Positions 33,001 to 36,000 of a DNA stretch of 64,000 bases are shown here, piece by piece (the first letter of the stretch is position 1; each line of letters opens with the position of its first letter). This stretch comes from an uncultured Nitrososphaerota archaeon (GTDB lineage: Archaea; Thermoproteota; Nitrososphaeria; Nitrososphaerales; Nitrosopumilaceae). Location: contig CAWGPD010000003.1 in NCBI GenBank assembly GCA_963824385.1, positions 64,001 to 128,000 of the forward strand. Reading direction: 5' to 3'. Position numbers: made by a program.

Positions 33001-36000
33001 GGATTTGCATGTGCAACGGTATGCTTCTACTGTGTATTAATCAAGAACAGGGCAAGAATAGATGATGCGCTGGATACTTGGGGTGTACACGGAATGGGCG
33101 GTGTTGTTGGTGCATTACTTACAGGTGCATTCAGTGAAGTCAGAATCAATCCATTTGGACACAATGGTCTCTTCTTTGGAAACCCAATGCAGTTTGTAAT
33201 TAATTGTATGGGTGCAGGATTTGGTGCAGCTTGGTCCTTTGGCATAACTTACATCATTTGGAGAATCCAAGATGCAATTTGGCCAGGTGGAGTTAGAGTC
33301 ACACCAAAAGAAGAAGAAGTAGGATTGGACATATCTCAAGTAGGCGAACACGCGTACTCTGGATTCGCAGAGTAAACTATTCCCACCTTTTTCATTTTTA
33401 TGTTTTCCAAGTCGCTGTTGATTGATTATTATTTCTTAAATTGAGAAACAGTAAATAGATGTCAATTTACCAAACTTTGTAAATGGCAGACAAGTGGTTA
33501 GTTTTTGTTGCATTACAATTTGTTAGTGCTGCAATTGGATTTGGTTTTTGGTATCTTGTTGATCATAGTTTTATCTTTCTAATGGTAGGAGGGCTCTTCT
33601 TTACACTTGGAACATTTGGTGCCACACGCTGGGGCTTTGACAAATGGAAAGGTAAAAACAAACCAAGAAAACGCGAAAAGAAACGATAATTTTATTTTTT
33701 ATGTTTTAATTTTTGATTTTCATATAATGGTATCTTTTATATCAATCACAATTTGCACTACCTGTAGATATTCTTGTCAGCAAAAAAACTCACATCTAGT
33801 AAAAAGAGACGTCTTGTAATATTTGCCATAATTACCATAATTGGAATTTCATATGCATTTTACAATTCGCAACTCAACTCTGGTTTTAAACATACCGTGA
33901 TGTGGAACTTTGATTCGTATCAAAATGGGACAATCCCCCAGGGTTTTGCTGCACTATCTACTGATCAAACGCCTTCCTGGGTAATAGTATCAGACCCAAC
34001 TGCACCATCTCCACCAAATGTATTGGAAAAAATACCGATTAATGATACTAATGATTATCATCTACAATTAATTCCAAATTCGCCTAATGTTGATACTGAA
34101 AATGTCACCATGAATTTTAAAATTGTGTCAGGTGAAAATGCAAAGTCTGCAGGTATGATTCTTCGATTCGTTGACATGAAACATTATTTTGTTTTGATGG
34201 CAGATTCTGGCCAAAACAGGCTCTCTTTATGCAAGGATACTCCTGACTTTTTATTGTGTATTTATGAAAAAAATATTACGATTACTTCAGGTCAGTGGCA
34301 TACACTCAAAGCATTGGTATCTTCGCAGGGAATAGCCGCATATCTTGATGGTCAAGTTGTCATACGAGCAAATGATCATAATTATCTGCAAGGACAAGTT
34401 GGACTGTGGACCAAGAAAGACACTGGTGCATTATTTGATGATCTTAAAATAGAGTACTAGCACAAACTCGTTTTAAAATTCTGGTCGAGTCCTTACACTA
34501 AAATTGCCTAGAGATTTGAATAGACTTTAGTTACAACAATATGGAGTCAATTGATGCCCAAGAAAAATTTCTCAAGATTCAGCTCATACTTGCAGTAATA
34601 CCTACATTTGTGACTCAGTTGTTTGCGTTTTACAGAATACGAAAACTAACCTATGGTATCATAATTGAAGTGATAATATTTTTTGTAGACTTGGTAATTC
34701 AGACAAGTATATCATGGCCATTTGGAGTGATAATTGTACTTCCGATATCTGTTTTAATTCCTGTTTACTTTGTACGAAAGTGGACTTTGGAATTTAACCA
34801 AACAAAGTCCATGTTCTAAAAATAGTTTATACTAATTCAAATAAAATGAAAAGAGAGGGGGTGATTGTTTTTAAATCACTTGCCAAGGTCTTGTAGCGAA
34901 AGTAACCACATATCCAATTGCAATGACTATCGATTGATAGGCTACGTTTACATATGGAATTGGTTTTACGATTGGATCGCCTGTTACCACGACTGTTTGT
35001 CCTGGACCTAGACCTGGACCGATGCTTGCTATGTTAAGTCTGTGTATGCATGTGATATACTGCTGGTTCAAGTGCTCTGATTGTTAGCTTGTATGGAACC
35101 ACTCCGTTTGCTGGTATTGTAATTACGTTACCAGGTGGATCTCTTGCTACAATCTCCCATCTGTTACCAGCGTTTGGTGAGTCACCGTAAACGGTGTACC
35201 ATCCTCGCAAGTCTCTGTTTACAAGACTTACAAATTTGCCAGAAACTGTCAGAGTGTCTCCTGTTTTAACAGATTGTTTTGACCAAGTCTCACCATCTAT
35301 TCTAATAAAACGACTCTGTAGTTGTGCCTGGACACCATGTGCTTCAGCATGTTGGAACATTTGTGCCATTGATGGTCCAACTGCTCCAAGTGCTACTATC
35401 ACACTTATTGCAGCCACAATAAACTTCTTATCGACCATATCGAACTGTAACAATTGAGAAACTACAACGATATATATTTTGCCCTGACTGATCCCTCTTA
35501 TGACAATAATCATGTATAACAGCGGTGTTAATCATGTATAATGTAATTTTATGTATGATGTAATTATCATATTGTATGTTGATTTAAAGTATTATTGATA
35601 TAATTTTTGGCATAAAAATATAAGAATTATACTTGATCTTATAGAAATTATAACTTATGGTTTAAATAAGTATCAACCATTCACTACTCCATGGCACAAA
35701 TGCCCGCACTAATTCCAAAAGAAGTTGAAATCCAGAGACTGAAGAAGATCTGGCTTATCATCATCGCATTGGGATCAATTGCAGCATCAGTAGAGGTTGA
35801 TAACTTCGTAGATGGATCTTTACACCAGACATCAATCAGAGATAGTGCCTTCACACCAGCACACTGGTGGTTATACAGCCACTTCATTGCTCTTCCATTA
35901 GGATGGGGAATGGTAGCTATGTATGATAGAAAAGTACCAATCCTGAGAGGTCCAAACAACTCAATGAACACAGGTCTTAAGATGACCATCCTTGGTTACT

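Follow-up and report, generated by a model that had tools for sequence, protein, structure and literature searches.

A palindrome array set at a conserved distance from the amoC promoter of ammonia-oxidising archaea across a helically phased spacer, and kept by viruses carrying amoC

Introduction

The locus studied here raises the question of which element in the DNA upstream of amoC may control this gene in ammonia-oxidising archaea (AOA), organisms that drive much of global nitrification. The stretch of DNA analysed (the window) comprises 64,000 nucleotides of contig CAWGPD010000003.1 from the assembly GCA_963824385.1 of an uncultured member of the Nitrosopumilaceae (genome G000 in our set), and its initial annotation had pointed to a 24-bp double palindrome, at a fixed distance upstream of amoC, as a candidate enhancer-like operator of the AMO genes. 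In the sections of the open literature covered here, amoC is given neither a regulator nor a conserved control element: a conserved motif upstream of amoC was not found in PMC3379541, a motif common to six amo genes was not found in PMC10030591 (where amoC6 is the main copy, with a log2 TPM of 14.4 in Table S18 as opposed to 2.8-8.7 for the remaining five), PMC7785015 gives two other motifs, the promoter predictions of PMC8115048 are bacterial only, and PMC7554672 describes TFB and TBP expansion in AOA, with supplement tables that contain no regulator list. A search of open PubMed Central and bioRxiv full text retrieved no description of the array reported below.

Results

A repeated palindrome upstream of amoC

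The double palindrome was recovered where it had been annotated (Table 1). The 24-mer at 35512-35535 lies 179 bp upstream of the amoC ATG (35691), forms nine of twelve complementary arm pairs and departs from the consensus proposed earlier by three mismatches. Scored with a symmetric 11-bp matrix, which was trained on 61 Nitrosopumilaceae (f1) loci with this genome and loci L001-L062 left out, it reached 18.5, the second-highest value among all places in its genome and one that was attained in 0/100 resamplings of the upstream region under a first-order Markov model. The 24-bp element is not, however, the true unit, which is an 11-bp palindrome repeated two or three times with a period of 13 bp and a nearly invariant core. 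Two units are found in f1 and mostly three in the other families; the third, 13 bp past unit 2, gives a signal in f3 and f2 and a weak or partial one in f5. Past unit 3 no unit signal was found, the mean unit score being that of the background.

Table 1. Features of the amoC region, in window positions
Feature	Position	Strand	Remarks
Unit 1 of the array	35512..35522	.	palindrome of 11 bp with the core G-N-T-N-A-N-C; first base 149 bp upstream of the amoC TATA box
Unit 2 of the array	35525..35535	.	ends 125 bp before the TATA box; best-conserved unit in every family
AT-rich spacer	35536..35654	.	10.5-bp phasing of A/T tracts; intrinsic curvature predicted
BRE position of the amoC promoter	35655..35660	+	A-poor in Nitrosopumilaceae, unlike amoA, amoB and amoX
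amoC TATA box (predicted)	35661..35668	+	first base 30 nt before the ATG
amoC	35691..36254	+	Pfam PF04896 over cut-off
amoX and amoA	36362..37486	+	own predicted promoter each, no array; amoX by gene order, no Pfam match
amoB predicted TATA box and A-rich BRE	35469..35484	-	divergent neighbour; distance to array varies
amoB	34871..35438	-	divergent neighbour, named by gene order; N-terminal frame without Pfam match
Unannotated 128-aa protein	40879-41265	-	RHH-like N-terminus and CxxC..CxH zinc-finger motif

As an inverted repeat, the pair might act as an RNA hairpin, a DNA cruciform or part of a small RNA, which we regard as extremely unlikely: paired cells between the arms numbered 779 against 779.5 in shuffles for f1 and 301 against 305.1 for f3, no Rfam match was obtained up to E=1, and three-unit arrays fit no single stem. 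This absence of compensatory change between the arms points to a protein site rather than a hairpin, and by its sequence the array resembles such a site and is a candidate for one.

Distribution among ammonia-oxidising archaea

Among amoC loci from GTDB genomes, 254 had a located start, and 222 distinct cellular loci remained after removal of three loci of unpublished genomes, loci with less than 260 bp upstream and exact duplicates. They fall into four AOA families, f1, f2 (taken here as the Nitrosocaldaceae of the initial annotation), f3 and f5. A pair scoring at least 10 was present in 136/140 loci of f1, 52/68 of f3 and 4/4 of f5, and in three of the four f1 misses the best pair was still correctly placed; the earlier impression that the site is weak in Nitrosocaldaceae copies was not borne out, 9/10 f2 loci carrying such a pair. 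All locus and genome counts describe spread and are given without a p-value, because kin are not independent. The matrix was built from a part of f1 only; the f2, f3, f5, viral and metagenome loci were all outside the training. A one-mismatch, exact-style pattern matched in 67/121 genomes (a tally that takes in one unpublished genome), mostly once, and in 0/9 genomes of non-AOA families.

Multi-copy genomes have one array per orthodox amoC copy. Within f3, the array accompanies 52/60 near-orthodox copies, the remaining 8/60 scoring below 10, and 0/8 divergent paralogues (<88% identity). As a separate observation, amoC paralogues are homogenised within genomes (L131/L159/L160, L135/L161/L162, L163-L165, L119/L179, L235/L236); the stretch shared by f3 paralogues extends upstream through the spacer and stops inside the array.

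Spacing to the TATA box

TATA boxes were predicted 28-44 nt before the ATG and called without reference to the array; the best pair was moved by one unit where it fell on units 2-3, and distances were taken from the end of unit 2 to the TATA box. The predicted amoC box of the window agrees with the TATA box placed 24 nt before the start in the relevant part of PMC3379541. In 193/222 cellular loci of the four families, 122-127 bp separate the end of unit 2 from the TATA box (f1, 122-127 bp in 129 loci; f3, 123-126 bp in 51; f2, 125 bp in 9; f5, 125-126 bp in 4). A further seven f1 loci have 134-136 bp, one helical turn more, and none has 128-133 bp; L182 (f3; 137 bp, no credible TATA box) was dropped from the count. 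Of 80 metagenome loci outside the training, 72 were distinct and long enough, and 59/72 fit the cellular spacing, 58 at 122-125 bp and one at 134 bp; the others were 12 viral-type loci at 36-37 bp and one locus without a pair. The distance to amoC, claimed to be fixed, is thus fixed as a distance to the TATA box and not as one to the ATG, where the spread of 173-190 bp is that of leader length (29-31 nt in f1, 30-44 nt elsewhere).

Both spacings occur in G263, whose two amoC copies, without a difference in the 297 nt of coding sequence compared, are spaced at 124 and 136 bp; these copies have the coding sequence in common and not the promoter. The longer class represents two to three independent events, not eight, with five loci sharing one second-copy promoter type; an amoC tree (297 nt) was unable to count the events because copies are homogenised. 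Distances of 9, 124.5 and 135 bp come close to whole helical turns (11.0 and 12.0, with 10.5 bp per turn), a match given little weight because it would arise by chance about once in three. In second-copy promoters of the longer class (L093, L204, L236, L436), the array is preceded by a TGCA repeat, a hint of a second input.

Phased A/T tracts in the spacer

The spacer had been described as variable in sequence and fixed in length. Its letters are indeed unconserved and its length is fixed, but it is not featureless, since the helical phase of its A/T tracts is conserved. In the window, phasing reached an amplitude of 12.84 (p=0.001 against 1000 shuffles), rank 1 of 108 G000 promoters and within the top 0.5% of 2216 AT-rich windows. 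The AT content of the spacers is 78-82% in the four main groups, and each family on its own shows AA/TT steps with a period of 10.45-10.65 bp. Their phase is locked to the TATA box, with R of 0.88 in f1, 0.86 in f3, 0.86 in f2, 0.96 in f5 and 0.97 in the class with one additional turn, against 0.10 in 54 G000 promoters taken as control. Single spacers beat their own shuffles (p<0.05) in 56/94 cases in f1 and in only 11/39 in f3 and 1/7 in f2. A crude tract model, with 18 degrees per tract, predicts a median net bend of 94 (f1), 66 (f3), 79 (f5) and 41 (f2) degrees, with 32-39 degrees in shuffles; the f2 bend is not above shuffles and all groups fall short of a U-turn. According to this crude model the spacer would be curved, yet would make no full U-turn without help.

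The same features may be read as chromatin architecture: histone, Alba or an Lrp-type oligomer would hold the spacer in a positioned wrap, and the array would serve for nucleation or as a boundary, setting promoter access without TBP/TFB contact. We consider this improbable. A histone gene is present over cut-off in 5/5 AOA genomes, G/C is periodic in the spacer too, unit 2 and the BRE are about 118 bp apart, near four histone steps of 30 bp, and PMC10030591 (Table S15) lists Alba and an AsnC-family regulator as conserved amo neighbours; on the other hand, the AA/TT period fits free DNA rather than wrapped DNA (roughly 10.0-10.3 bp), and the spacing variant is longer by 10-11 bp and not by 30. 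Against a wrap stands also the viral array (see below), which is kept where there is no room for one.

Very unlikely, too, is a non-transcriptional role in which the array, as a chromosome tether, partition or recombination site, lies beside amoC by chance. It would suit the mostly single strong site per genome and the near-identity between copies that stops inside the array in the multi-copy genomes G120, G159, G171 and G302, and it is at odds with a TATA spacing that holds to 2-3 bp in all four families, with the phasing of the spacer and with the one array per orthodox copy.

The amoC promoter and its neighbours

The six nucleotides before the TATA box, where the BRE is expected, are poor in A at amoC of f1 (A fraction 0.19) and before the first viral box (0.14), as opposed to amoX (0.67), amoA (0.65) and amoB (0.57); at amoC of f3, f2 and f5 they are only moderately so (0.34-0.46). 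A non-consensus BRE is one trait of archaeal promoters with a proximal activator site (UAS). The window comes from a Nitrosotalea-like ammonia-oxidising archaeon, its AmoC protein being identical to that of the closest named loci. The divergent gene, which on sequence likeness as well we take to be amoB, is frameshifted in the assembly (35034-35071, break near 35039), probably through an assembly error, since RNA contigs of three runs are one base short at 35039. Coverage by RNA contigs from four runs extends over amoB, amoC, amoX and amoA and leaves out 35458-35645, a gap that carries no weight.

Lying 27 bp from the amoB BRE, the window site is much closer to amoB than to amoC, and could act on amoB or equally on both divergent promoters. 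That it does so is highly improbable. The distance from the array to the amoB TATA box is not fixed and scatters from -3 to 158 bp (126/133 loci), amoB is missing from the upstream DNA retrieved for 69 scoring loci, and the site follows solo amoC and is kept by viral amoC genes that lack any further amo gene in their vicinity; the assignment to amoC and not to amoB made initially is thereby upheld. As an operator of the AMO genes at large, the site was seen for amoC and hardly for amoX or amoA, a pair being present in 0/83 amoX and 1/82 amoA upstream regions.

Two further features of the neighbourhood should be noted. In many f1 loci, a GATC-containing motif shortly before the amoB BRE is conserved (window 35484-35495). 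After amoA, the window has a gene in two frames (37618-38485) which, by likeness, presumably encodes a Dam-like methyltransferase; its homologues flank 51 f1 loci.

Viral amoC loci

The array was kept in 25/25 viral amoC loci of IMG/VR, which represent 13 distinct sequences, with scores of 20.5-27.2 reached by 0/100 resamples in each. The pair is situated 90-92 bp before the amoC start and the host spacer is missing. No amoA, amoB or amoX was found within 2 kb of amoC in the 25 loci; many viral amoC genes adjoin a major head protein gene (PHROG match for the two tested). Exactly 9 bp past the pair, a TATA-like box (score at least 7.3) with an A-poor BRE position occurs in 12/13 sequences, and a second box with an A-rich BRE is found at +36/37 bp, out of phase with the host spacing. 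In L261 and in 4/12 viral-type metagenome loci (which partly repeat IMG/VR contigs), the leftward reading of the +9 box is at least as good as the rightward one. With the leftward reading and the second box, the first box may serve as a promoter, either an activated or a leftward one, or as a TBP bend.

Among viral pattern matches, 16/29 were away from amoC, with nothing in common in the nine inspected. A short GC-rich motif, in either orientation, is located in the 20 bp between the viral boxes (L259-L283), and a viral contig without amoC (L336:1201-1968) has four pattern copies at spacings of 380, 183 and 183 bp.

The viral layout bears on the possibility that the array is a distal repressor operator, whose bound protein loops or locks the curved DNA over the promoter until released by a signal, e.g. 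ammonia or copper. The same geometry would explain the fixed spacing and phasing, and in viruses the site lies directly against the BRE position, so that TFB could be blocked there and a leftward transcript from the +9 box would have its start covered. We nevertheless think repression unlikely: no second operator was found near the amoC promoter on the 13-bp grid, a poor BRE accompanies activators, the site is lost in divergent paralogues, and viruses keep a near-consensus site without the spacer, which would be odd for a brake on a gene carried for use.

Search for a binding protein and a wider regulon

Several candidate families were examined, and no binder was found among them. The RHH-like zinc-finger gene (Table 1) has a match in 169/173 f1 genomes (three unpublished ones included), usually 3-5 kb from amoC; only distant relatives exist in the complete f3 genomes G184, G235 and G120 and none in G218, and its promoter carries another motif. 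This palindrome-like motif, conserved between TATA box and gene start, is likely an autoregulatory site. The structural model of the protein was poor (pLDDT 48.8), and a PDB search with it returned no significant match. RHH_1 matches were obtained in 5/5 AOA genomes; for RHH_1 and AbrB/MazE genes, no array was seen upstream of the ORFs chosen at 45 RHH/AbrB loci of five genomes, several of these being wrong-frame picks.

An ArsR-like wHTH protein came into consideration through second sites at L285/L291 and G000 C1:34054, which proved unconserved. Unlike what an ArsR-type 12-2-12 operator would show, a pair scoring at least 10 lies upstream of the ArsR-like gene in only 3/30 loci, all of one genus, and before none of six G000 paralogues; the palindrome conserved upstream of this gene is another one. 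The gene (L304-L330; G000 C1, upstream of 34444, minus strand) has a triple TGCA repeat with a 5-bp period just upstream of its TATA box, conserved across Nitrosopumilaceae genera in an activator-like position.

The Fur family (PF01475) was detected over cut-off in 0/5 AOA genomes, with two weak matches below it (controls 12/14), and the AAA+ domain of sigma-54 activators (PF00158) in 0/5 at E 1e-10 or over cut-off (controls 5/14).

As to a wider regulon, none of 54 other G000 promoters has a pair at 9, 37, 124 or 135 bp. Fourteen pattern matches without a listed amoC nearby were inspected; one was amoC, several lay inside coding sequence, and no target recurred across genera save CBS-domain genes, twice. 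CBS, Usp and small regulator genes are frequent around other pairs (G000 C1:292397, C1:34054, C3:179680 and C4:10666; L293), and one non-amoC pair of G000 scores above the amoC site.

Discussion

Judged by its conservation, the array is a genuine cis-element of amoC that extends over the whole order, has an unusual long-range layout and is retained in viruses. The A-poor BRE of f1, the arrangement in viruses and the absence from divergent paralogues make activation at a distance the best reading, and we think it probable that the array is a distal activator site that reaches the weak-BRE amoC promoter via curved DNA. Beyond the statements that a protein binds here and that spacing matters, we infer every step of this. 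A host transcription activator of amoC would bind the array and act from a distance; its dimers would occupy the units cooperatively, and the curved spacer, perhaps aided by histone or Alba, would bring them to TBP/TFB, so that they recruit basal factors to a promoter weak on its own. The result would be high amoC expression, controlled apart from amoA, amoB and amoX. Viruses with amoC would tap the same host protein, with the site placed immediately before a BRE, where archaeal activator sites usually lie. From the short dyad core and the 13-bp period we would assume, weakly, a binder of the beta-ribbon type, e.g. a ribbon-helix-helix protein. In the sections covered, archaeal activator sites are described as lying just upstream of a weak BRE/TATA and as requiring the right helical face (PMC7408454, section 6.2), and under copper limitation amoC3/4/6 are reported as up and amoA/B/X as down (PMC7785015).

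The most complete version of this activation model could well apply, although we put it forward tentatively. In it, an order-wide activator about 125 bp upstream would reach TBP/TFB by sequence-encoded curvature, with no proximal site, and would set amoC output apart; marine archaeal viruses would have hijacked the module by moving the site beside their own TATA box.

Among known systems, archaeal UAS of the Ptr2, ara-box and TFB-RF1 type are alike, as far as section 6.2 of PMC7408454 describes them, in palindromic sites, helical-face constraint and, for f1 and the first viral box, a poor BRE. The centre of the viral pair lies 21 bp ahead of the box, counted to its first base; this is near the 21-bp spacing of that review, which measures from site to TATA box, so that reference points may differ. 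A site adjoining or overlapping the BRE is found only in the viral form (9 bp) and not in cells (122-136 bp from the TATA box), where no proximal site exists and the sole array stands about 125 bp off across a phased spacer, fixed in four families; fixed spacing and helical face relative to the TATA box are present, as judged by conservation.

Bacterial sigma-54 enhancers (NtrC, NifA; with IHF or intrinsic bends) have sites about 100-150 bp upstream, bent intervening DNA and phase dependence, and resemble the amoC layout in their tandem palindromes more than 100 bp upstream, AT-rich DNA that is bent (at amoC, by prediction) and helical phase; they differ in that amoC has a TATA/BRE promoter, that no sigma-54 activator domain was found in the five AOA genomes, and that the array is fixed in position to a few bp. 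The designation as enhancer-like accordingly fits in part: the phased spacer, the variant with one additional turn, the poor BRE and the viral short form agree with it, while the fixed position is unlike a true enhancer. The three-unit arrays of f3 resemble, to our eye, the centre of a bacterial Fur box, but the array period is 13 bp and Fur is absent over cut-off from the genomes searched. The archaeal regulators Ss-LrpB and AvtR, with distal high-affinity sites and spreading or wrapping (PMC7408454, in the part covered), share several sites in a distal promoter and possible wrapping. The amoC array differs from both in its fixed spacer with a curvature signal of its own and in being kept by viruses without the spacer, and no degenerate sites were found stepping in register towards the promoter on the 13-bp grid, as in AvtR-type RHH spreading. 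By analogy, the array would work most like an archaeal UAS moved out to enhancer distance.

The array offers a defined bait for pull-down of the amoC regulator, a sequence marker by which active amoC copies may be distinguished from minor paralogues, and a way into the control of amoC by the viruses that carry it. The built-in variants, with two spacings, two or three units and a spacer-less viral form, make a test direct, and if the array is activating, it would represent natural action at a distance in archaea.
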